Shown: positions 21,018-35,983 of the stretch, one piece after another
Layout of the letters: each line of letters opens with the position of its first letter
Position numbering within the stretch: the first letter of the stretch is position 1
Assembly: GCA_016840855.1 (NCBI GenBank)
Contig: JAEORO010000076.1
Coordinates: forward strand, 1-38,879
Direction: 5' to 3'
DNA from: Candidatus Thorarchaeota archaeon
GTDB lineage: Archaea; Asgardarchaeota; Thorarchaeia; Thorarchaeales; Thorarchaeaceae
DNA: 38,879 nt
Notes under the pieces: model-generated
Database searches by the model: none
What the model saw: only the letters and a program-made list of their open reading frames with translations
What the model was told of the DNA's origin: nothing
Made by a program: the position numbers and the translations under genes

Positions 21018-21087
21018 TGGTATACCACCACATAGGGCATGTGCTGCCCAAGACTTGAGCCGCCACGACTCTGCTTACGTAAAAATG

Positions 21088-23289
21088 TTACTTCATTGAT
21101 TGCAGAATTAAAAGCAGGCTCTTTTCTAGTTTCTCGCTCTCGTTCCTGGCTCTGTGTTTTGGGTCTAAAAGTTTCAGCAAAATTGAATTTACATATTCAA
21201 GTTCTTCTAAGCAATTTTCAACAATGCCCGGCATATCATCCTCACATACAATTTCCTCAATATTCTTAGAAGGCAGTTTCTTCAAAACACGGTCTACAAC
21301 TTCTTTTGGAATAGGTGTTCGCGCCATGACAACATTTCTCAGAATCGTCATCAAATCATTCTTCTCATCAACAATTGCTCTCATTACTCTCTTTGCATCT
21401 TTTACTGGTACTCCCAGAAAAGCAACATCTCTCCCTAGTTCTGTACAGCGCGTACCTTCTTTGTCACGAACAATGAGTCTATCAGCTTCTAATTCATCAT
21501 AGACCTCAAGTCCACGGAGTGCTTGCATTATCACTCCTCCAGCATAAGGTTTCGTATCTTCCTTCTGAAGTGCATACTTTGCGAATTTTATCAGATGCTT
21601 ACAGAGTCGGTGTTTCCTAATACCTTGATATTTCCATGATTCACAAGAACATGAAACACCATCTTTTGCCCTCAATGTAGTATAATGCCAAATCTCTCTG
21701 CTTCCGCTATGAACAAGACCTTCTATTTTGTCTGGTCTGACTGACACAAATTTTACACTTGTATCAGGTATCTCTTTTGCTCTTGAAATTGTTGATCTAG
21801 TAGAGCGAAGTGTAAGTAACTTCTCTACTGAATGCTCGTCTTGACTCTCAGTCTGACGAATATCAGTTACAAGGTTACTGCTCCCCCAAAATGTGCGCTC
21901 AATTACAGAGAATGGGTCCTCGTTTTTCTTTGTCCCTCCACAGAGCTGCCGAAGGACTAAGTCTTGAACATTCTCAGTTTCATCCATTAGGCTATCAATT
22001 TCCCCAAGTCGTGGTTTTAGGCTGCCCTCTCGATCTTTTTCGAAATATTTCGCTATTACTCTTAGTCTCTCAGACTCATTATCTACAACAACAATACCAA
22101 AGGCTTCATTATCTATTCCTCTTCGACCCGCTGCTTCAAGAACGTCTGTTAGTTGCCATTCAGATAACATAGTAACCGATTCTTCTTGAGAAACCTCTTT
22201 ACCAAATTCTTGCATAAACACCCCCATCAAGAAGACAACAGTTGCTCGTAACCCACTAGCAATAGCAAAGCGTGTTGGCATTATTATTACAGGCACGAGG
22301 TTCTCCTCCCAAGCTTGTGAAAGAGTTCGTCTCTGAACCCTTCCTATTCCCTCGTGGATGAACGCTACGCCTTTTGCGACTGATTTACTCAGATTTAGAG
22401 TGGTCTTACACTGTGGATACTTTTCGGTAACATCACGTGCAAGAAGTCGAAGGTCATCTCTATGTTCAGGGGATAGTCTCAAATCGATGGCTGTAGCCAT
22501 GCTGCCCGTTTCAAATCCACCAAGTTGGAGCGCTAACTCCTCGCAAGTGGTTATGTTTGCGCAAAGAATCATTACTTGCCCTTGCCGATATGTCACGAAC
22601 TCAGTCAAGTCTGACAGCGAATCTTCTGAGTCTTCAAAGGTTTTTACGCTGAAAATCAGCTTCACATCAGTTTTTGGATCCTTCACTATGTCAGCACTAA
22701 GCCATTTAGCAAGCTCATTCATGTCCTCTAGATGTGGACAGATGGCGACATACTGGATGTGCGCTTGGTTCAACAATGTCACTAGAACTGTTTCCAACCG
22801 CGGCCCAATGAGTGGTTGTCCAATAAGATCAAGCCGATCAATCAACACGTAGGTAACGCCATCAATGATATTGGGGTTGATGCGTGATGCTATGTCAAGC
22901 GAAGTATATGTTGCTACAACAACTCGACCAAGACCCTCACCTTCAGCAATTGCGGTTCGTCTTCTAATGATTTCCGACGCTTCAATTCCCAAACGGCGGC
23001 ACTTCTGACTCAATGAACGAAATCGTTTCTCTGCTTGATGTGGGTTTGGACAAAGAACCAGTGCCCGAGCCCGATGATCTGAAGCTACTCTGTTGAGGAG
23101 ACCAATCTCAGCAATCAAGTATGCCTCATCATAATCATATGTCACAAGGAGCTGGCTTTTTCCTCTGATAATTCCTTGTTGAACTGAAATGGACTGGAAT
23201 CTAGTGAGTGTGGCAAGTCCTTGCCGTCTAAGCAACTCCAACAAACGAGGGGCTACCTGTTGGAGTTCCAATTCCCGGAGAGTGCTCAA
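21088..23289 (-). CDS. Predicted inactive Hel308/Ski2-like helicase with inserted SWIM zinc finger
   Basis: Helicase scaffold (LTRFQ, VVVATY, GPRLE, GVAFIHEG, AAGRRG, TELGRDV). Walker A is replaced by TYDYDEAY and DExH by DRLD. SWIM motif CSC-x13-CKH at 21651-21595. Confidence 0.78.
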   Translation of the reverse strand: MSTLRELELQQVAPRLLELLRRQGLATLTRFQSISVQQGIIRGKSQLLVTYDYDEAYLIAEIGLLNRVASDHRARALVLCPNPHQAEKRFRSLSQKCRRLGIEASEIIRRRTAIAEGEGLGRVVVATYTSLDIASRINPNIIDGVTYVLIDRLDLIGQPLIGPRLETVLVTLLNQAHIQYVAICPHLEDMNELAKWLSADIVKDPKTDVKLIFSVKTFEDSEDSLSDLTEFVTYRQGQVMILCANITTCEELALQLGGFETGSMATAIDLRLSPEHRDDLRLLARDVTEKYPQCKTTLNLSKSVAKGVAFIHEGIGRVQRRTLSQAWEENLVPVIIMPTRFAIASGLRATVVFLMGVFMQEFGKEVSQEESVTMLSEWQLTDVLEAAGRRGIDNEAFGIVVVDNESERLRVIAKYFEKDREGSLKPRLGEIDSLMDETENVQDLVLRQLCGGTKKNEDPFSVIERTFWGSSNLVTDIRQTESQDEHSVEKLLTLRSTRSTISRAKEIPDTSVKFVSVRPDKIEGLVHSGSREIWHYTTLRAKDGVSCSCESWKYQGIRKHRLCKHLIKFAKYALQKEDTKPYAGGVIMQALRGLEVYDELEADRLIVRDKEGTRCTELGRDVAFLGVPVKDAKRVMRAIVDEKNDLMTILRNVVMARTPIPKEVVDRVLKKLPSKNIEEIVCEDDMPGIVENCLEELEYVNSILLKLLDPKHRARNESEKLEKSLLLILQSMK

Positions 23290-23556
23290 CTAGTCCCGCT
23301 CCATCAAATGCGCATATGGTGCTATGAGGTTATAGTATATTATCCTATTAGTTTTGTGTGTGCCTTGCCAAAATACCGTAAAGCTTTTCCAAAAATGCAC
23401 AACTTTCTCAGTTTATTTATGCCCTTTAGAATGTGTGTTACCCGTCCTCTCATACCAATCTTATACAGACACATACAAAGTCTCAAAAGGAATCGTCAAA
23501 CCTTTACAAATAGCAAGTATGAGGTTGAGAAATCAGCCATTACAATTGAGGCTTGA

Positions 23557-24303
23557 ATGTTCATGGCTTTCGTAGCTACCACTGATTCATCTTTCAAAAT
23601 CATATTGAAAAAAGACTTCAAGATCAAACCCGGGTCGACTTTCATTTGTGGATTTCATGGTCTCGGTGAGGTAGGCTTTCTGAGTACCGCTCATCTAACT
23701 CGGACCTTAGAGGCAGAACGTGTGGGATTTATCAAAAGTGATATGCTTCCTCTCTTCGTTTCAATGGAGAATGAACGTCTTGTTCTACCATTCGAGCTGT
23801 ATTCTTACGACAAGAAGAAGATGATTTTTCTAGTCCCACGGTTTCAACCACATCAGTCAGAACAATGGGGGTTCATTGACAAGCTCGCAAACTGGGTGGC
23901 TGAAAATAACTTCAAAGAAACCCTACTCCTTGGAGGACTAGACGCTTCCTTCAAGGAAGATGACGCAGAAATGCGATGTGTTCCAACATCTGCTTACAAA
24001 GACATGCTTGAAAAATGGCAGGTCCCTATTCTGGAAGAAGGCTTGTTTGTGGCTGGTCCACTCGCACTATTCCTTGCAGAGCTTGAAATGCATGGTGCTC
24101 CTGCAATTGGTCTACTCACATACGCAACAAGAGGTCGTCCTGATCCGCGGTCTGCAGCAACGATGCTTGAAAAAATCAATGAGATTTACGGGGTTGGAGC
24201 TAATGTCGAGCAGCTTCTAGAGGAATCTAGAGAGATTGAGAGACTTGAGAAAATGAGAAAATCCATTGAAGACTCAGACAGAACCAGTGACATGTTTGTC
24301 TAG
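23557..24303 (+). CDS. PAC2-family proteasome assembly chaperone
   Basis: GFHGLGEVG, LLGGLD, AGPLALFL, PDPRSAA. Confidence 0.9.
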   Translation: MFMAFVATTDSSFKIILKKDFKIKPGSTFICGFHGLGEVGFLSTAHLTRTLEAERVGFIKSDMLPLFVSMENERLVLPFELYSYDKKKMIFLVPRFQPHQSEQWGFIDKLANWVAENNFKETLLLGGLDASFKEDDAEMRCVPTSAYKDMLEKWQVPILEEGLFVAGPLALFLAELEMHGAPAIGLLTYATRGRPDPRSAATMLEKINEIYGVGANVEQLLEESREIERLEKMRKSIEDSDRTSDMFV

Positions 24304-24842
24304 CCCAAACGTCTTATGAACCAACCAATATCAACCAGATTCTTGGCAACAAGCTTCTCTGGTCCAAGTCGGGTCAGCTTTGATGCGTCTACCGATAATG
24401 AGGCAATCCCCAAACACTCCTTATCCTCGTTGAGAACAAGCACTCTTTGTCCTCTCATCAAAGAGAGGTTTAGCTCGAGTACAGACTCCTTGATTATACT
24501 TCTCCCATATGTAAACGCTTCAGCACCTTGTTTGGACACGATGATGAAATTAGAAGTTCCTTCAGCCACCTCAGCTAGAATTTGAAGGCTAAGTCTAAAT
24601 CTTCCCTTTTCTAATGACCCTAGCTCTTTCCCCATGAATTGGATGTCAAGACTGTCTGCTGTTTCCATCAGTTTTGAAACCCACTCAGTTGGTATTGCAT
24701 AGAGTGTCTGACTGCTCTCCTTAGATACGATTACTGGCGCACGGTTTCCAAGAACCCTCTTTGTCACTCCTACACCGAACTCGGTGTCTATTTGCTCAAT
24801 GAGTGATTCCCAGGCAATAGGGTCAACAAGATCAATCTTCAT
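24300..24842 (-). CDS. nip7: Nip7-like PUA-domain ribosome biogenesis protein
   Basis: GAEAFTYGRSI, VLVLNEDKECLG, KNLVDIGWFIRR; coupled to the Nop2-like gene. Confidence 0.75.
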   Translation of the reverse strand: MKIDLVDPIAWESLIEQIDTEFGVGVTKRVLGNRAPVIVSKESSQTLYAIPTEWVSKLMETADSLDIQFMGKELGSLEKGRFRLSLQILAEVAEGTSNFIIVSKQGAEAFTYGRSIIKESVLELNLSLMRGQRVLVLNEDKECLGIASLSVDASKLTRLGPEKLVAKNLVDIGWFIRRLG

Positions 24843-25821
24843 TATTGCTCCCCTCCTTTTTCTTCATCTTACAAATGAAGAACCCCTCAGTACCATGGAG
24901 GTGCGGCAGAAACCGCCTTGCAAGTTTCAATGATTTGTTTAGTTTTATTCCATAGGGTTCTGAATATCCAGGTGAGCCAAACTCAGTAGATATGTTGACT
25001 ATCTCCATCTCTGGGTGACGTTTCAATACATCATCTACCACAAATTCATTCTCTTCTGGAGCTATGGAACAGGTGGAATATACCATTATGCCGCCCTCCA
25101 CAAGAATGTTGACGGCGGCTTCTAGCATTTCGTCTTCTCTTGTCGCGCAGAATCTTATGTCCGCCATTGATTTACTGGTCTTCCTAGTTGGGTCTAAAGG
25201 AATTAGTCCTTCTCCAGAGCAAGGTGCGTCAAGCAATATTTTGTCCGGCGTAAAGGGTAAATCATCTACTTTTTTGGCGTCGCTACGAAGTACGAGAGTG
25301 TTCGTTGCACCGCATCTGATTATATTGCTGTTAAGACTAATCATACGTTGTCTGTCTTGCTCGATTGCGATGACCATTCCCGTATTTTGCATCATCTGAG
25401 CAATATGGGTTGTCTTTCCGCCAGGTGCAGCTGCAAGATCAAAAACTGTTTCTCCTAGCTGGGGGTCCAATACATCAACAGCCGTCATTGAAGGAACGCC
25501 TTGAACATAATAGAATCCAAGCATGTGTTCGAGTAGAGCCCCAGGGGAAAAGCCCTTGAAGTCCGCGTAGAGACCCTCAATCAGCCATGGTATCTCTTCA
25601 AGTATCACTCCTTTTGTTTGCAATCGTTTCATAATCGTCTCTGGTGAGGTCTTTAGAGTGTTGATCCGAATTGCTGTTCTAATTGGCTGTTCGCAAGCCT
25701 CGATGAACCTTAGTGTTTCTTCCTCACCCCAGAGAGAGAGATAGCGTTCAAGCATATATTGGAGATACCCGTATTCTTTGGCAAGTTCTTTTGCTCTTTG
25801 ACGTAGCTCCTTTTTCGCCAT
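24832..25821 (-). CDS. RsmB/Nop2/NOL1-family RNA m5C methyltransferase
   Basis: IRINTLK, DLAAAPGGKT, ILLDAPCSGEG, YSTCSIAPEENE, PHLHGTEGFF. Confidence 0.95.
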   Translation of the reverse strand: MAKKELRQRAKELAKEYGYLQYMLERYLSLWGEEETLRFIEACEQPIRTAIRINTLKTSPETIMKRLQTKGVILEEIPWLIEGLYADFKGFSPGALLEHMLGFYYVQGVPSMTAVDVLDPQLGETVFDLAAAPGGKTTHIAQMMQNTGMVIAIEQDRQRMISLNSNIIRCGATNTLVLRSDAKKVDDLPFTPDKILLDAPCSGEGLIPLDPTRKTSKSMADIRFCATREDEMLEAAVNILVEGGIMVYSTCSIAPEENEFVVDDVLKRHPEMEIVNISTEFGSPGYSEPYGIKLNKSLKLARRFLPHLHGTEGFFICKMKKKEGSNNED

Positions 25822-29670: not shown

Positions 29671-29845
29671 GCTTAAGACCTTTCACAGATGACAACAACA
29701 TTTCAAGATGGTTTCGATAAACTGGATTGAGTCCAGCTGAGCAACCCTTTAATTGCTAGGAAAGGACGTTTGAGAGTAACTTGTCACCACCGTGAGTTAC
29801 AAGACACGCCAAATATTCCAGATAGTAAACGAGAGGACTAGTCTA

Positions 29846-32800
29846 TTGAGCGCCGCAACAAAATCTGCCCGCAGAAGAATGGGGATTACTACACTTATCA
29901 GCGCAATCTTCATAGTGGCTAGTCTCGTCTGGGCAACATACAACTTTGTAATAGTCCAGTCTGGTGCCGTAAGGCAATTTGAACCTCATTTCGAATACGA
30001 TACCATACCATACTGGCCCTATGATAACGATTTTGTGGGTGGCAGAACTAACTGGTTTGAAAACATCAATTATACAAATGTCCCTCTCGATATGGACCTC
30101 CCTGAAGACCTACTTGGCAACTTGGATGACATCATATTCACAGTAGTCCCAGCAGACCCGCCACAATTATGGCGTATTGGAGCATATGATGACTATGATG
30201 GTGCTAACTGGGGGAAAACCATCTTTGGTACGGATATTTTGGATTCAGATACACAACTGATAACATATGGTGAAGCCACAAACCCGGTATATACTGTTAT
30301 TTTCAATGCTACCGCAGGAGCTACTGTTGGAGCTATGGAGATTCCCTCACTCTTTCCAGATATTCGAGTGATTGAGGACTCATTCATAACCTGGAGTATT
30401 GATGGAAATGGGAATCCATACCCAGACCCCAGTCTTTTACTAGACTACGATTTAGAAACTGATGCCTATGGTACCCTCCTCTTCACACCATTCATACAAG
30501 CACCCACAGGTGAGGAGGTCATTGTGACCTTTGATCTCACATTTGATACCCAAGACCTTGACAATGTACGGACAAACGCACTCTTGACTGTGCCAGGTGG
30601 ATATGGTAACTACTTGACTTATCCCTCATTGAGTCAGCGTGTAATCGATAATATCACACAATTCCAATCAGTTGGTAATGATGCATATGAAAAAGCAATG
30701 GCTGTCCAACTGTATTTCCAGAGCACTTTCGAGGTTCGTGTTGACGCTGCAGCATTAACAGATAGACCTGATGGTCAGGAAATCACTGATTGGTTTCTTG
30801 AGCGTGGTGGTGGGCTTCCCATGGACTTTGCAACTGCATATTGTGTCTTCATGAGGTATCTTGGAATCCCTGCTCGCTTAGCCATGGGGTATGCTGTTGG
30901 TGACCCAGATCCAACATTCAGTTATCGAGAAGTGAAGGTCAGACACATGACTTTTTGGTCCGAGGTCTTCATCCCAATGTCCGGGTCTCCCACAGGTGGT
31001 GAATGGATTCAGGTCATTCCTGCGATGTTGCCTGAAGATATGGGTGGAGCTGAAGACCCCACTAACACACCAACACCAAATGTCCAGCTTCTTGTCTGGC
31101 CAACCAGTGGCCAACCATGGGCACAGATTGGAGTCCCATTCAGTTTGAGTGCAGCCATCACAATTGATGGAGTTCCTGTCACAACTCCTGAAGTCATCAC
31201 TTTCTATGATGAAACTGACTCTGTTTTCATTGGCGCAGCAGCAATCCAACCCAGTCCACCAATAGCTACCATCACACACACTTTTCCTGCTGGTGCATCA
31301 ATTGACTATCACATCATTTCAGCCACATGGACTACTTCAACATACTCTATCACAAACCGAACCTCTATTTATTGTGTGGGAGATCCTAATCCATTCTCAT
31401 ATCCAACTCCTTCAACTGAATCTGGAGGATTCATCCTCAGTGAAACAAGAGAGCTCAATGTAAGTCAAGGGATAGACACCCACTTTGCATTCTGGGAGGA
31501 CACAATCCACGTCTATGGAACGATTAAGGTGGGTGGAGTCCCAGTCAACAGCTCAAAACACGACAACACGAATATTGGTATCTATTGGGATAACTCATTC
31601 ATGGGAAATGCTACTTTTGATGAGTATGGCTATTACGAGTTAGATATCTATGTGGACCCGTTGGACCTCTTACGAATGACTGTTGGAGCTCATGAAGTCT
31701 GGGCGTGGTATCTTGGGGACTGGGACCAATACGGTGTTCCTCGCCTCCTTCCAGCCCGATCGAGCAACAATTCAACCGTCACCGTCTGGGGTCGTGTAGG
31801 ATTCGATTTGTATGTATACCCCACTGATGTTTCCCCAGGTGGAACCGTCTATTATGATGGCGTTGCGTATCTTCTAAATGGTACCTTATTACCGACGAGC
31901 GAACAGGTTGGAGTTTTTTTTGGGTCGCAAGCAAATGCAACACCTAGTCTGAACTCTACTGGTGGCTTCACATGGAGCTATCCCATTCCTAGTGCTCAGC
32001 CTGAAGGTACATATTTCGCCTATGCAAACTGGACTTCTCCTTGGACACTGATTGCAGGTAATTGGAGTGTCTTTATCCCAGTCAATGTTGGGTCAAGTGG
32101 TACACAACTCTCAATTAATCTGCTTCCCGACCCTCTCTATATCGGATGGAATTATACAATATCTGGATACTTGACTCATGTGTCAAACAGTACTGGCATT
32201 GGCGGTCAGCTGGTCGACATCTATTGGAACAATGGATCAACCTTTCTCCTTGGCAGTGTGTTCACAGCTTCAGATGGATACTACGAATTGAATTATACGG
32301 TCCTCCTTTCGGATGAAGGCCCAGTTGAATACTGGTCAAACTTCACATCAAAAACGCCTACTCTTACAAGTTCAGAATCAACACACCTCTTTACTACTGC
32401 AAAGAAACTTGACATCTCACTAGACCCTATCTCCGTCACACCAGATCCTGTGTTCCTTCTTCAGCCAGTTGATATTCAGGGACTTCTACAGCTCCCCGAG
32501 TTCGCCATTCCTTTGCCGAATGAGTGGGTAGAATTCTGGTTGCAGAATAGCACTGGTGTGTTCAACATTGGAAGTGACATGACAAACTCCTCTGGAGGGT
32601 ATTTCTATCAATACACTATTCCCATTGGACAAGCGACTGAAGTCGTGAACATCTGGGCAAACTACACTTCACCCTACTACAATGTATATGATGGCGAGTC
32701 TGTCCATGAGCCGTTGGACATACAAGCAACCAGCACCCTAATCTCGATTCAAGAAGACTTCACATTCTACCACTTGAATGACACCATTCTCCTCTATGGT

Positions 32801-35800
32801 ACGCTCTTATTCTCAAATGGTACTCCCATCCAGTTTGAAACAGTCTATATCTACTGGGTCAATGCATCTGGAACATTTCCTTTCGCAAAGACAACTAACG
32901 CATCCGGTTACTATCAAATGTTCTATAATTGCACTCCAACACAGGATGAGCCAGGTCTGATAGATGTCTATGTGAACTGGACGTCTTGGATTCCTATCTA
33001 TGCTGATGCTTCTAGTTCAATCGCTCCACTGATACAGCTTCAAAGATACTATCTTGAGATAGCCCTCAACGTGCCTTCTCAACTCTATGTTGACGAAACA
33101 GCTTTTGACATTGAAGGTGTACTAACATATCTTGGTGGTGCACCGCCACTGGCTGGGGAAACAGTGTACATTTCATGGTGGGACGGTGCTGGTTGGTACG
33201 AACTTGACAATCCGGTGACGAATTCAACTGGTGGTTTTCTTACATCACTTGGTTTTGTAGGGTATGATGAGGGAATTTACTACTTCCGTGTTCTATACAA
33301 CAGTTCAAACCCTCTGAACAATGATACAGTTGCATATTTTGATATCACACGAATTAAGTATGCGATTAATCTTGATGTGACCATCAATCCCAATCCAGTT
33401 ATGCAAAACGAAACTCTGATAGTTCATGTCTATGCATACTTCGCACACAATGGTACTGCTCTCTCAAACGCGACAGTTTCCATATTTTGGAACAATGGAA
33501 CTCTACCACTTCCCTTCCTGGGCAATGTCCTCACAAATGGGACTGGTCAGGGTGAACTTTACTACTCCGGAATGAGTTGGGACACTGTACGATCAGGTAT
33601 TGAGGTATATGGTGTATACGCAGGGACTGTATTCCGAGCATCAAGTGAGTCGGTGCATAACATCCTCACTCTGAACCAGTGGCAAACAATATTCACTACT
33701 GTTAACCTCCCACCTGGACCGTATAGACTTGGAGAAACTATTGTTGTTACGGGATACCTCGAGTATGCAATTTCTGGTATTCCCTATATCGATGTTACCG
33801 TCGAGCTGACTCTTCTAGGAATCACCCGAACAACAGATGTGACCTCATCAGATGGCTCGTTCACGCTGAGTTGGGATATTCCCGGAACCCTCCCACCAGG
33901 CAACTATAGCTTATTCGTCGAATTCAACTCGTTATATCCATGGATAACTGATGCTTCGTTTGCGTTACCGCAGATTGAAGTAATTGCTCCAGGTTACTTT
34001 TGGCCTGAGTTCACGGTGACGCCAACAACTATCTATCTGGACCAGGTTTTGAATATCACAGGGCGAGTGACTTGGGACAATGGGACACCATATGCAAACT
34101 CACCAGTAGATTTCTATTGGGGCGACTATTTCGGAGTCAATAATCCCTTTGTCATAGACTTCTTGACTGATGGTAATGGCAGATTCTCCTATCTCTTTCC
34201 GATTCCAGATGACCTTGGTCTTGTTGGAGTAAGAGAGGTTTGGGCATATATCGACCCTGCTGGGTATGCCACATTTGGAGTGTCTCCACGTATTCCTATT
34301 CTAATTGACCTCTATTCTGTTGCTATCACAGCTATTGTGGATTCGACAACTGTATACCTAGGAGGCAGTCTTACCTTCTCAGGAACCCTACAACTTACCG
34401 ACGGTACTCCTCTAGTAGGTTATGACATTGAGATTTGGTGGGGTGGCAGTCATCTGACCACAATCACCATCAGTGACACGATTGCTGGTGCGTTCAATTA
34501 TGTCTATCCGATATCTTACAGTAATGCACTAGGTGTCATCTCAGGATATGCTCTTTTCACACCTCCTTCGATAGCTTGGGGTACTACAGATACCATTGAG
34601 TTCTTCGAAGATGTGACTGTTATAGAACGCGTAGATGTCTTCATGGATACACAACCTGCTGACAATACTGTAAGCCGAGGTGATACATTAATCGTAACTG
34701 GTTATGTTCGCAACGACGGAGGCTTTTTAGCTGACGGTGTGAGAGTTGAAGTTCTAGTTGATGGTGGGGGAACTGGTTCTACGGACATTACCGCTGCTGA
34801 CGGTAGTTATTCCATTTCACTGCCGATTCGAGATAATCAAGCACGTGGTTCATACATTATCAGCGTTCGGGTCACTTCAACATTCCACGAACTCCGGAAT
34901 GGTCCTGTTAGTTGGACCATTCTGGTCTACATTGATTCACATATCTATGTCCAAACAAATCAGCTATCAGTAATGCATGGAGAATCTTTCTCTGTGATTG
35001 TCCAACTCACTGATGATGATGGAGTGCCTCTTGATTTTGAGTTGGTGTCACTCTACCTAGGTTCCACATATCTTATGGATGCGGTCCTTTCAGATGCAAG
35101 TGGTGACTCGTTTAATTTGGTGGTGCCACTGAGTTGGGCTGAGGGTGATGGATATTTCGTTGTTTCAGCAGAGTATGATGGCAGATTGTACATTAATCCC
35201 AGTAGCGATGAATCAACTGAATCCATTCATGTATTCAACAGTCCGGTCTTTTTAGCTACTCCAAGCAGGGTTGATCCCGGACAGTCTTTCAATATACTTG
35301 TAACAATTCAAGACTCAGAAGGAAACCCGGTGAGATCGCGTGAGGCGGGGTTGAACTATAACGGTACAAATGTGGGTCCCTATGTCACAGATACTGAAGG
35401 AAGATTCTCATACAGCGTACCCGCACAAGTTGAGGGATCTTTCATCAACTTTAGAGTCATTCTCATATCCCCCGAAGTGGGTAATATTCAATCTAATACG
35501 TTCACAATCAATATACAAACAATAGGTGGTAATCCATTGCAAGGAGCAGATTTACTCATAGCAAGTATTTTACTCGTTGGTGCAGTTGTAGCCGTTTTGG
35601 CATACCTGTACATAGTAAGAGGAATGTTCCGCAGTCCTATAATCTCGAGAGGAATTGATATCCCAACCAAGCTGCGAAATATCAAGAAACTCGCAGACTC
35701 TGGAAAGTATGGTGCCTCTATAACTCTGGCCTACCGTACCTTCGAGCAGATGTGTGGCACGAAGATGGGCTCCGAACGGACTCATTCCGAGACCGCTCGT

Positions 35801-35983
35801 GAGTATCTAGATCGTATCTTACAAACAATCCCCCTCGATGCAGTGACTGTTGAACGGTTCGTACAGACATATGAAGAGGCTCGCTTCTCTCATCACGAAA
35901 TGACTCGTGAGCGATATGAAGAAGCTGTTCGTATCTTTACGGACCTCTATCCTAGAATTGACTCAACTGCCCCCGTGGAGTAA
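29846..35983 (+). CDS. Giant surface protein: N-terminal TM, transglutaminase-like domain (catalytically degenerate), ~14 Ig-like repeats, C-terminal TM and DUF4129-like tail
   Basis: LWRIGAYDDYDG, DFATA..RYLGIPARLAMGY, WSEV, LLVGAVVAVLAYLY, SETAREY, YEEARFS. TTG 29846 (GAGG SD) aligns with the paralog start; the ORF track starts at 29792. Confidence 0.88.
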   Translation: MSAATKSARRRMGITTLISAIFIVASLVWATYNFVIVQSGAVRQFEPHFEYDTIPYWPYDNDFVGGRTNWFENINYTNVPLDMDLPEDLLGNLDDIIFTVVPADPPQLWRIGAYDDYDGANWGKTIFGTDILDSDTQLITYGEATNPVYTVIFNATAGATVGAMEIPSLFPDIRVIEDSFITWSIDGNGNPYPDPSLLLDYDLETDAYGTLLFTPFIQAPTGEEVIVTFDLTFDTQDLDNVRTNALLTVPGGYGNYLTYPSLSQRVIDNITQFQSVGNDAYEKAMAVQLYFQSTFEVRVDAAALTDRPDGQEITDWFLERGGGLPMDFATAYCVFMRYLGIPARLAMGYAVGDPDPTFSYREVKVRHMTFWSEVFIPMSGSPTGGEWIQVIPAMLPEDMGGAEDPTNTPTPNVQLLVWPTSGQPWAQIGVPFSLSAAITIDGVPVTTPEVITFYDETDSVFIGAAAIQPSPPIATITHTFPAGASIDYHIISATWTTSTYSITNRTSIYCVGDPNPFSYPTPSTESGGFILSETRELNVSQGIDTHFAFWEDTIHVYGTIKVGGVPVNSSKHDNTNIGIYWDNSFMGNATFDEYGYYELDIYVDPLDLLRMTVGAHEVWAWYLGDWDQYGVPRLLPARSSNNSTVTVWGRVGFDLYVYPTDVSPGGTVYYDGVAYLLNGTLLPTSEQVGVFFGSQANATPSLNSTGGFTWSYPIPSAQPEGTYFAYANWTSPWTLIAGNWSVFIPVNVGSSGTQLSINLLPDPLYIGWNYTISGYLTHVSNSTGIGGQLVDIYWNNGSTFLLGSVFTASDGYYELNYTVLLSDEGPVEYWSNFTSKTPTLTSSESTHLFTTAKKLDISLDPISVTPDPVFLLQPVDIQGLLQLPEFAIPLPNEWVEFWLQNSTGVFNIGSDMTNSSGGYFYQYTIPIGQATEVVNIWANYTSPYYNVYDGESVHEPLDIQATSTLISIQEDFTFYHLNDTILLYGTLLFSNGTPIQFETVYIYWVNASGTFPFAKTTNASGYYQMFYNCTPTQDEPGLIDVYVNWTSWIPIYADASSSIAPLIQLQRYYLEIALNVPSQLYVDETAFDIEGVLTYLGGAPPLAGETVYISWWDGAGWYELDNPVTNSTGGFLTSLGFVGYDEGIYYFRVLYNSSNPLNNDTVAYFDITRIKYAINLDVTINPNPVMQNETLIVHVYAYFAHNGTALSNATVSIFWNNGTLPLPFLGNVLTNGTGQGELYYSGMSWDTVRSGIEVYGVYAGTVFRASSESVHNILTLNQWQTIFTTVNLPPGPYRLGETIVVTGYLEYAISGIPYIDVTVELTLLGITRTTDVTSSDGSFTLSWDIPGTLPPGNYSLFVEFNSLYPWITDASFALPQIEVIAPGYFWPEFTVTPTTIYLDQVLNITGRVTWDNGTPYANSPVDFYWGDYFGVNNPFVIDFLTDGNGRFSYLFPIPDDLGLVGVREVWAYIDPAGYATFGVSPRIPILIDLYSVAITAIVDSTTVYLGGSLTFSGTLQLTDGTPLVGYDIEIWWGGSHLTTITISDTIAGAFNYVYPISYSNALGVISGYALFTPPSIAWGTTDTIEFFEDVTVIERVDVFMDTQPADNTVSRGDTLIVTGYVRNDGGFLADGVRVEVLVDGGGTGSTDITAADGSYSISLPIRDNQARGSYIISVRVTSTFHELRNGPVSWTILVYIDSHIYVQTNQLSVMHGESFSVIVQLTDDDGVPLDFELVSLYLGSTYLMDAVLSDASGDSFNLVVPLSWAEGDGYFVVSAEYDGRLYINPSSDESTESIHVFNSPVFLATPSRVDPGQSFNILVTIQDSEGNPVRSREAGLNYNGTNVGPYVTDTEGRFSYSVPAQVEGSFINFRVILISPEVGNIQSNTFTINIQTIGGNPLQGADLLIASILLVGAVVAVLAYLYIVRGMFRSPIISRGIDIPTKLRNIKKLADSGKYGASITLAYRTFEQMCGTKMGSERTHSETAREYLDRILQTIPLDAVTVERFVQTYEEARFSHHEMTRERYEEAVRIFTDLYPRIDSTAPVE
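31076..35520 (+). repeat. About 14 degenerate ~100-aa Ig-like protein repeats
   Basis: Recurring [IV]xGxL...[ND]GTP...VxIYW...T[ND]xxGx[FY] units; many N-x-S/T sequons; the repeats are not conserved at DNA level. Confidence 0.7.

Follow-up and report, generated by a model that had tools for sequence, protein, structure and literature searches.

Helicases of the Hel308/HELQ type have a central place in the control of recombination, from archaea to humans, and no known group is more closely related to eukaryotes than the Asgard archaea. Here we describe, on a contig of 38,879 nucleotides from Candidatus Thorarchaeota archaeon (GenBank assembly GCA_016840855.1, 92% complete; contig JAEORO010000076.1; hereafter the window), the gene for a 733-residue protein, P0001, that combines the body of a Hel308 helicase, in which the ATPase motifs have been replaced, with a SWIM zinc-finger module set inside the winged-helix (WH) domain. 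Judged from its sequence, the ATPase site of P0001 is dead in the canonical sense and has been so for long. The SWIM insert is ancestral to a family of Hel308 paralogues, all named members of which are Asgard and most of which have intact motifs; in one branch, subfamily A, the motifs are relaxed in several classes and entirely lost in the Thorarchaeaceae. We suggest, with moderate confidence, that P0001 is a stand-alone pseudo-helicase serving as a non-catalytic adaptor or regulator with a SWIM arm, probably in recombination or repair. One lineage of this family has made the motor into a conserved non-enzyme, a natural experiment on a helicase body without ATP, and the SWIM-Hel308 proteins at large provide a means of testing an archaeal precedent for the eukaryotic associations among helicases, RAD51 paralogues and SWIM proteins.

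A Hel308 body with replaced ATPase motifs

Genes of this kind are annotated automatically as 'hypothetical protein' or 'superfamily II helicase', labels that do not convey what they encode. The NCBIfam equivalog model for Hel308/Hjm (NF040935) aligns to residues 10–430 of P0001 only, at 93.4 bits against a cut-off of 1200, and phmmer matches residues 11–428 to the PDB sequences of the archaeal helicases 2zj2 (E = 1.3e-18), 2va8 (2e-16) and 2p6r (5e-10). In these phmmer alignments TYDYDEAY faces the P-loop (...SGKT) of all three proteins; in the alignments to Hel308/Hjm, DRLD faces the DE(I/L)H of motif II, ICP the SAT of motif III and EAAGRRG the GRAGRP of motif VI (Table 1). The motif set of superfamily 2 (SF2) helicases, namely Walker A GK[ST], DExH, SAT and the motif VI arginines, is therefore broken in P0001, motif VI keeping only AGRR, and motifs IV and V remain recognisable. 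Because the glycine, lysine and threonine of the P-loop have given way to aspartate, glutamate and alanine, and the catalytic glutamate to arginine, the ATP site cannot work canonically.

The same replacements recur across species. GK[ST] stands at the Walker A position in none of the 51 orthologues from different species that cover the site (counted over the window and 54 further loci), and motif II reads [DE]R[LI]D in 52 of 52. Identical substitutions in 51–55 orthologues from different species lie far beyond chance, and the near invariance of the replacement motifs implies that the old nucleotide pocket has been selected for something else.

The fold of the protein was examined in AlphaFold 2 (AF2) models. 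Given close orthologues only, AF2 left the insert unfolded, with a predicted local distance difference test (pLDDT) score below 50 over residues 513–562; given a 48-row alignment of the wider family (A2), it returned a model with a pLDDT of 84.7 and a predicted template modelling score of 0.82, which was used for the fold comparison. Structural alignment with VIA matched this model to Hel308 from S. solfataricus (2va8) at Z 34.8, with a root mean squared deviation of 2.9 Å over 562 residues, and to Hjm at Z 34.6, Hel308 from A. fulgidus with DNA at 30.8, the PolQ helicase domain at about 30, and the Brr2 cassettes and Mtr4 at 27–29 (26–29 for Mtr4 and Brr2 overall); across the archaeal Hel308/Hjm proteins 554–574 residues align. 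The match runs through the whole RecA1–RecA2–WH–ratchet architecture in order, model residues 2–731 corresponding to chain residues 1–660 of 2va8 and 8–728 to residues 3–626 of 2p6r. Since the end of the model falls at residues 626–660 of chains of 653–700 residues, P0001 comprises domains 1–4 and lacks the helix-hairpin-helix (HhH) domain 5; no HHH family of Pfam matches it either. Unlike Hel308/Hjm, it has replaced Walker A and motifs II and III, no domain 5, an acidic RecA2 and an extra module in the WH domain.

The original prediction, made from the letters of the window and their open reading frames, had named an ATPase-dead Hel308 scaffold without a C-terminal HhH, the four motif strings given above and an intact frame of 733 residues, and all of these points hold. 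The minus-strand frame has no internal stop, the plus-strand reading of 21088–23289 is full of stops, and the TTG start aligns with the methionine of orthologues, which share the same first residue.

Retention under purifying selection

A word-indexed search returned 201 relatives of P0001. The best 120 of these 201 share 58–92% identity, and those with names are mostly Thorarchaeota, with single rows labelled Odin-, Hermod- and Promethearchaeota. An orthologue with an intact frame is encoded at 54 loci in GTDB species genomes. In a six-frame search of the class, one copy each was found in 82 of the 85 other genomes of the family Thorarchaeaceae, covering all 16 genera and all but one of the 24 high-quality genomes. 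The sister family, represented by a single genome, gave no match at E ≤ 1e-40.

The ratio of nonsynonymous to synonymous substitution rates (dN/dS) was computed by the Nei–Gojobori method against six relatives, of which the sixth (L004) was saturated in dS. In the five unsaturated pairs the whole gene gives 0.043–0.076, with 0.013–0.033 for SucC and 0.069–0.139 for a PUA gene as comparators. The SWIM module gives 0.025–0.064, and its mean column identity over the window and the 54 loci, 0.807, is the highest in the protein (0.61–0.73 for the other parts). These values indicate that P0001 is under strong purifying selection. Distribution across genomes and dN/dS, which the original prediction had singled out as informative, both describe a long-kept gene.

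They also dispose of the alternative that the helicase gene is decaying, or was inactivated recently, and has no role of its own. Such a gene would account for the loss of all catalytic motifs; the frame, however, is intact at 54 loci of different species, dN/dS is 0.04–0.08, every genus retains the gene and the replacement motifs are near invariant. On the selection and distribution data we regard decay as refuted.

A SWIM module inside the winged-helix domain

Between the WH anchors Trp468 and Leu591, P0001 has 123 residues where nine canonical Hel308 proteins have 14–16, and the insert is therefore about 108 residues long. The original prediction had placed a module of about 120 residues between the two halves of the WH domain, and the site is exact. 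The SWIM string that it quoted, CSCESWKYQGIRKHRLCKH, is present and reads CxCx13CxH. In the AF2 model the insert consists of a low-confidence linker, two helices, a four-stranded sheet (512–547) and two further helices (550–575).

All 55 orthologues have the signature unchanged, as do all 48 members of the SWIM-Hel308 family described below. The Pfam SWIM model PF04434 scores 16.7 bits on residues 544–567 of P0001, under its gathering cut-off of 19.6, and matches 16 of the 48 family members at E ≤ 0.01 (best 2e-6). A phmmer search of PDB sequences with the module (485–600) gave one chance-level row (E = 1), and ESM Atlas gave no usable match to the module alone.

An Asgard family of SWIM-bearing Hel308 paralogues

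A search of 1.84 billion cluster representatives yielded 602 matches at E ≤ 0.001. Below the P0001 orthologues stand proteins of about 710–990 residues that are 20–26% identical to P0001 and align across the insert. CxCx(6–28)CxH occurs in 46 of the 150 listed distant representatives and lies past residue 450 in 37 of the 46; 35 of these 37 SWIM-bearing representatives retain GK[ST], in most cases together with DExH and GRAGR. Counts of the Walker A pattern included some spurious upstream matches ('RGKSQ'), and the motif alignments are the basis relied on here. Of 20 clusters looked up, 12 have an organism name, and all 12 are Asgard, from Hod-, Odin-, Ran-, Jord-, Hermod-, Baldr-, Loki- (including Promethearchaeum syntrophicum) and Heimdall-archaeal lineages. 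The WH anchors are 114–148 residues apart in 13 SWIM-bearing rows, against the 14–16 of the canonical proteins, and P0001 shares with the family a SWIM insert of about 100–130 residues at the same place in the WH domain. A protein of P. syntrophicum annotated only as a DEAD/DEAH box helicase (WP_147663182.1) is an example, with the same insert and CxCxnCxH.

The original prediction was correct in seeing a SWIM finger within the WH domain; the insert is nevertheless a trait that the dead protein shares with its paralogues, having been present in their common ancestor. It had also treated intact Walker motifs in homologues as a sign of recent decay. Such motifs are found in distant paralogues and in orthologues from other classes, and not in the thorarchaeal orthologues; because the insert goes back to a wider, mostly intact family, that objection touches P0001 only at a distance.

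Phylogenetic trees separate this family from Hel308 proper. In a FastTree analysis of 116 rows, 68 canonical Hel308 proteins stand apart (support 98) from the SWIM-bearing rows. An IQ-TREE analysis of 54 rows (LG+G4), in which the program warned of long branches meeting, placed the thorarchaeal clade (stem 1.41) inside a subfamily A of 12 rows (Shimodaira–Hasegawa approximate likelihood-ratio test, SH-aLRT, 98), together with Hod P0131, Ran P0135 and P0285, and Odin P0134, P0143 and P0144; this tree, too, sets the SWIM-bearing rows apart from canonical Hel308. In a mixture-model tree of 27 rows, rooted on five canonical Hel308 proteins and with the long rows P0285 and P0144 left out, all 22 SWIM rows form one clade against the canonical ones (SH-aLRT 100), and the thorarchaeal clade joins subfamily A on a stem of 2.74 changes per site. 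Compared with the paralogues that keep Walker A, P0001 has lost the ATPase motifs and lies on a stem of 1.4–2.7 changes per site. Origin of P0001 by a lineage-specific duplication of the active thorarchaeal paralogue described below is disfavoured, although the rejection is weak (difference in log-likelihood 28.4, approximately unbiased (AU) test P = 0.037).

Motif relaxation in subfamily A extends beyond the Thorarchaeaceae. Motif II takes the forms DETY, EECD, DDAQ and DEFQ, and motif VI the forms GRAGN, SRAGK and KAGR; P0144 (Odinarchaeia, 593 residues) and P0285 (Ranarchaeia, 824 residues) are fully dead as well, both having lost Walker A and motif VI, and P0144 also motif II. The losses in these two proteins imply that the motor was lost more than once in subfamily A, or was lost early with divergence thereafter. 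Subfamily A and a further subfamily, B, both lack domain 5 and measure about 720–740 residues, and HHH_5 matches only 6 of 48 family rows. A search of the phylum with a family model found matches in 200 of 201 genomes, a figure that is not a count of the SWIM family because the model also scores canonical Hel308.

No description of a Hel308 family with SWIM was found in the literature searched, subscription journals being outside its scope. Hel308 and SWIM occurred together only in a Saccharolobus stress-response paper, which from the portion available we judge unrelated, and a search for pseudo-helicases in connection with Asgard archaea returned only a note on Utp25, likewise available in part. 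The accessible text of a phylogenomic survey of archaeal Ski2-like helicases (PMC10946056; supplements outside the scope) does not contain 'SWIM' and describes only Hel308, ASH-Ski2 and Brr2-like groups. This analysis adds the two subfamilies, the repeated motif decay in subfamily A, a reversal of charge in RecA2, the PAC2/sucCD setting of the gene, and the presence of the dead copy alongside an active SWIM paralogue with a RadB-like operon.

Active helicases alongside the dead one

Most thorarchaeal genomes contain further proteins of this kind, an active SWIM-Hel308 and a canonical Hel308. The P0001 assembly also encodes a canonical Hel308 (595 bits) with intact motifs and no SWIM, and the window itself holds a third Hel308-like gene, P0272 (919–3600, minus strand; 893 residues), 18 kb from the P0001 gene. 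P0272 keeps its P-loop, with DELT and AGRIG at later motifs, is extended by about 150 residues at the N terminus and lacks a SWIM signature; the Hel308 model gives it only 125 bits over positions 11–679, and its branch in the tree is very long.

Other Thorarchaeaceae genomes carry a second full-length SWIM-Hel308 with intact motifs, belonging to subfamily B. One example, P0288 (730 residues), has an intact P-loop, DEIQ, SAT, GRAGRP and CxCx11CxH, and the P-loop residues are invariant in a 20-row alignment of this paralogue (A3). Of 85 genomes, 57 were found to carry it, and among the high-quality ones 20 of 23. It lies in a tight operon (for example L097 623–7542; also L093–L096, L098 and L107) that encodes a 786-residue protein, the helicase, a 562-residue protein and a 221-residue RadB/KaiC-like protein. 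All four genes are present at five of six loci examined, the sixth being cut by a contig end. The best family match of the 221-residue protein is RadB (TIGR02237, E = 7e-7), under the cut-off; the 786- and 562-residue proteins have no match in Pfam, NCBIfam or PADLOC, and PADLOC reports for the operon only a generic, HamB-type helicase similarity. The active SWIM-Hel308 and these two operon genes were not found in the P0001 assembly, where the RadB-like gene was not searched for; their absence may be an assembly gap. A complex prediction for the active thorarchaeal SWIM-Hel308 (A3) with the RadB-like protein (A4) returned no answer (score 0.00, with no controls run) and counts neither for nor against an interaction.

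The SWIM proteins Shu2/SWS1 (ZSWIM7) partner RAD51 paralogues, and the SWIM-Hel308 family resembles them in having a SWIM signature and, in its active members, adjoining genes of the RecA family; the likeness consists of that signature and gene context. The original prediction had pointed to SWIM proteins as partners of RecA-fold proteins. At the level of the family this fits the operon of the active paralogue with a RadB-like gene, whereas P0001 itself, unlike the active paralogue, has no RecA-family neighbour. It is conceivable, though we consider it quite unlikely, that the Asgard archaea possess a recombination-mediator system in which RecA-family (RadB-like) paralogues dock onto the SWIM arm of Hel308-type proteins, a forerunner of the HELQ–BCDX2 and Shu2/SWS1–RAD51-paralogue partnerships, with the thorarchaeal dead copy as a motor-less regulatory subunit. 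In such a system the acidic pseudo-P-loop would mimic bound nucleotide, giving a 'self-liganded' helicase body, and the dead copy would compete with the active helicases or pass substrates to them. HELQ binds RAD51 paralogues, according to the part of the source available (PMC13623763).

The company of active helicases also invites comparison with Brr2, in that P0001 might regulate an active Hel308-family helicase in trans as the inactive C-terminal cassette of Brr2 does for its N-terminal one. That cassette still binds nucleotide; like P0001, it has a Ski2-like helicase body put to a use other than unwinding, and its region (chain residues ~1305–2057) aligns to P0001 at Z 27–29. Thorarchaeal genomes would supply candidate clients in the canonical Hel308, the active SWIM-Hel308 and the third Hel308-like gene, and the dead motifs are kept more strictly than a mere scaffold would need. 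The Brr2 cassette, however, is fused behind the active one and carries a Sec63 unit, whereas P0001 stands alone, lacks the P-loop lysine, has the SWIM insert and shows no Sec63 or FN3 match in Pfam. P0001 is neither fused to nor in an operon with any helicase, and the active SWIM paralogue was found in fewer genomes (57 of 85) than the dead protein (82 of 85). We consider a role as a trans-acting regulator of this kind improbable.

Proposed role

RecA2 grips single-stranded DNA (ssDNA) in Hel308. The net charge of this domain is −9 in P0001 and −5 to −16 in 12 of 13 thorarchaeal rows. Of the 35 other rows of the family, 31 have a positive RecA2. The SWIM module carries +2 to +9 in all 13 thorarchaeal rows. 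The ratchet helix of P0001 keeps an aromatic residue, tyrosine for tryptophan, eleven positions after the conserved glycine, and in the listed variants of the orthologues an acidic or polar residue stands beside it, at a position that is arginine in the subfamily-B consensus.

We propose that P0001 descends from Asgard SWIM-bearing Hel308 paralogues, most of them still intact helicases, and that its former nucleotide pocket may have been rebuilt as a fixed, conserved interface made up of the acidic pseudo-P-loop, the arginine at the catalytic-glutamate position and the retained motif VI arginines. Salt bridges from the pseudo-P-loop to those retained arginines may lock the two RecA domains together without nucleotide. 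The canonical ssDNA track would be weakened, and the SWIM arm would be the working surface, binding a partner protein or nucleic acid, with P0001 as a passive adaptor or regulator. Recombination or repair appears the likeliest field because of descent from helicases sited with RadB-like genes, the active relatives apparently working beside RadA/RadB-like proteins.

The net acidic RecA2 sits uneasily with the DNA/RNA binding that the original prediction had inferred. Several points weigh against our own proposal. The surroundings of the gene (PAC2, sucCD and RNA-modification genes), conserved at 49–51 of 55 loci, hold no repair gene, and four subfamily-A loci elsewhere (three Hod and one Odin) likewise have metabolic genes around them (PALP, ThiN, aconitase). 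The dead protein occurs without a detected active paralogue in the P0001 assembly and in three high-quality ones, and therefore may not depend on that paralogue. The placement of the thorarchaeal clade in subfamily A in the mixture-model tree has a support of 92, unstarred, and the group examined in the AU test (dead plus active thorarchaeal proteins) was chosen after the tree had been seen. The salt-bridge lock is pure conjecture, and any partner, ligand or nucleic-acid binding of P0001 is hypothetical.

P0001 might instead be a motor-less DNA annealase that pairs naked complementary strands without ATP. The available text of a 2026 review (PMC13623763) credits an ATPase-null mutant of HELQ with annealing naked DNA and presents Hel308/HELQ as mainly annealing enzymes, and it assigns the annealing to HhH domain 5 and to a domain 4–5 fragment. 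Domain 5 is missing from P0001, which makes such a role less likely; the acidic RecA2, and the acidic or polar neighbour of the ratchet aromatic where the active subfamily B has arginine, point the same way. We rate this reading as very unlikely.

An RNA-binding or ribonucleoprotein-assembly role also seems unlikely to us. The SWIM arm would then resemble the arch or KOW insert of Mtr4/Ski2, or P0001 would be a structural factor like Utp25. The neighbourhood is rich in RNA genes (TruD, a β-CASP RNase, a NusA-like protein, UPF0113/PUA, an RsmB/F methyltransferase and a deaminase), the structural matches to Mtr4 and Brr2 are strong (Z 26–29), and the Mtr4/Ski2 arch also sits within the WH domain, as stated in the accessible part of PMC10946056. 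Utp25, a component of the small-subunit processome described as a pseudo-helicase in the portion of PMC9539457 available, likewise keeps a helicase fold without the ATPase motifs; compared with P0001 it is DEAD-box-like rather than Ski2/Hel308, eukaryotic, devoid of a SWIM insert and engaged in ribosome assembly. The order at the 55 loci is PAC2 (divergent), the P0001 gene, sucC and sucD, with SucC and SucD present at 51 and PAC2 at 49, and the RNA-modification genes lie beyond PAC2, from which the P0001 gene diverges. As the whole block is syntenic across the family, adjacency weighs little and the neighbourhood says little about function. The nearest relatives in sequence and fold are, moreover, DNA helicases (Hel308, Hjm and PolQ), active members of the family sit with RadB-like genes and the RecA2 of P0001 is acidic. 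We therefore retain as the preferred reading the non-catalytic adaptor or regulator set out above.

Features of the gene and its surroundings

The coordinates of the gene, its domains and its motifs are collected in Table 1.

Table 1 Positions in the window of the P0001 gene and of its domains, motifs and flanking signals
Feature	Position	Strand	Basis and remarks
P0001, whole gene	21088..23289	minus	733 residues; TTG start; TAA stop at 21088-21090
RecA-like domain 1, residues 1-205	22675..23289	minus	phmmer alignment to Hel308/Hjm, AF2 model, VIA alignment
Pseudo-P-loop T-Y-D-Y-D-E-A-Y, residues 50-57	23119..23142	minus	replaces Walker A; phmmer and motif alignments
D-R-L-D, residues 151-154	22828..22839	minus	replaces motif II DExH; Arg at the catalytic-Glu position
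I-C-P, residues 183-185	22735..22743	minus	replaces motif III SAT; motif alignment, orthologue columns
RecA-like domain 2, residues 206-432	21994..22674	minus	phmmer, motif alignment, AF2; motifs IV and V partly kept
E-A-A-G-R-R-G, residues 385-391	22117..22137	minus	replaces motif VI GRAGRP; AGR(R) part kept
WH domain, N-terminal half, residues 433-470	21880..21993	minus	ends in TFW helix; AF2, anchor-column alignment
WH insert, about residues 471-586	21532..21879	minus	anchor-column spacing, AF2 secondary structure
SWIM signature C547-x-C549-x13-C563-x-H565	21595..21651	minus	sequence CSCESWKYQGIRKHRLCKH, CxCx13CxH
WH domain, C-terminal half, residues 587-628	21406..21531	minus	AF2, anchor-column alignment
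Ratchet domain, residues 629-733	21091..21405	minus	VIA ranges, conservation; conserved helix P-G-I-V-E-N-C-L-E-E-L-E-Y; last domain of the protein
TATA-like A/T-rich stretch	23330..23346	minus	about 45 nt before the start codon; seen by eye
T5 run	21081..21085	minus	directly after the stop, within the 70-nt gap before sucC; read by eye

Further observations concern loci around family members. At an Odinarchaeial locus (L103 2011–5745), a tubulin-family gene is found some 4 kb away from the subfamily-A helicase, which also has nearby a KaiC-like protein with an apparently degenerate P-loop region. The gene immediately after the helicase belongs to the aconitase family, much as sucCD come next in Thorarchaeota. 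In the window, a UPF0113/PUA protein and an RsmB/F-type m5C methyltransferase are encoded on the minus strand at 24300–25821 with an 11-nt overlap, a pair that we take to resemble the eukaryotic Nip7–Nop2 pair. Farther along, on the plus strand at 29792–35983, the window encodes a 2063-residue protein with a transglutaminase-like core, MG2/MG4, CarboxypepD_reg-like repeats and a C-terminal DUF4129.

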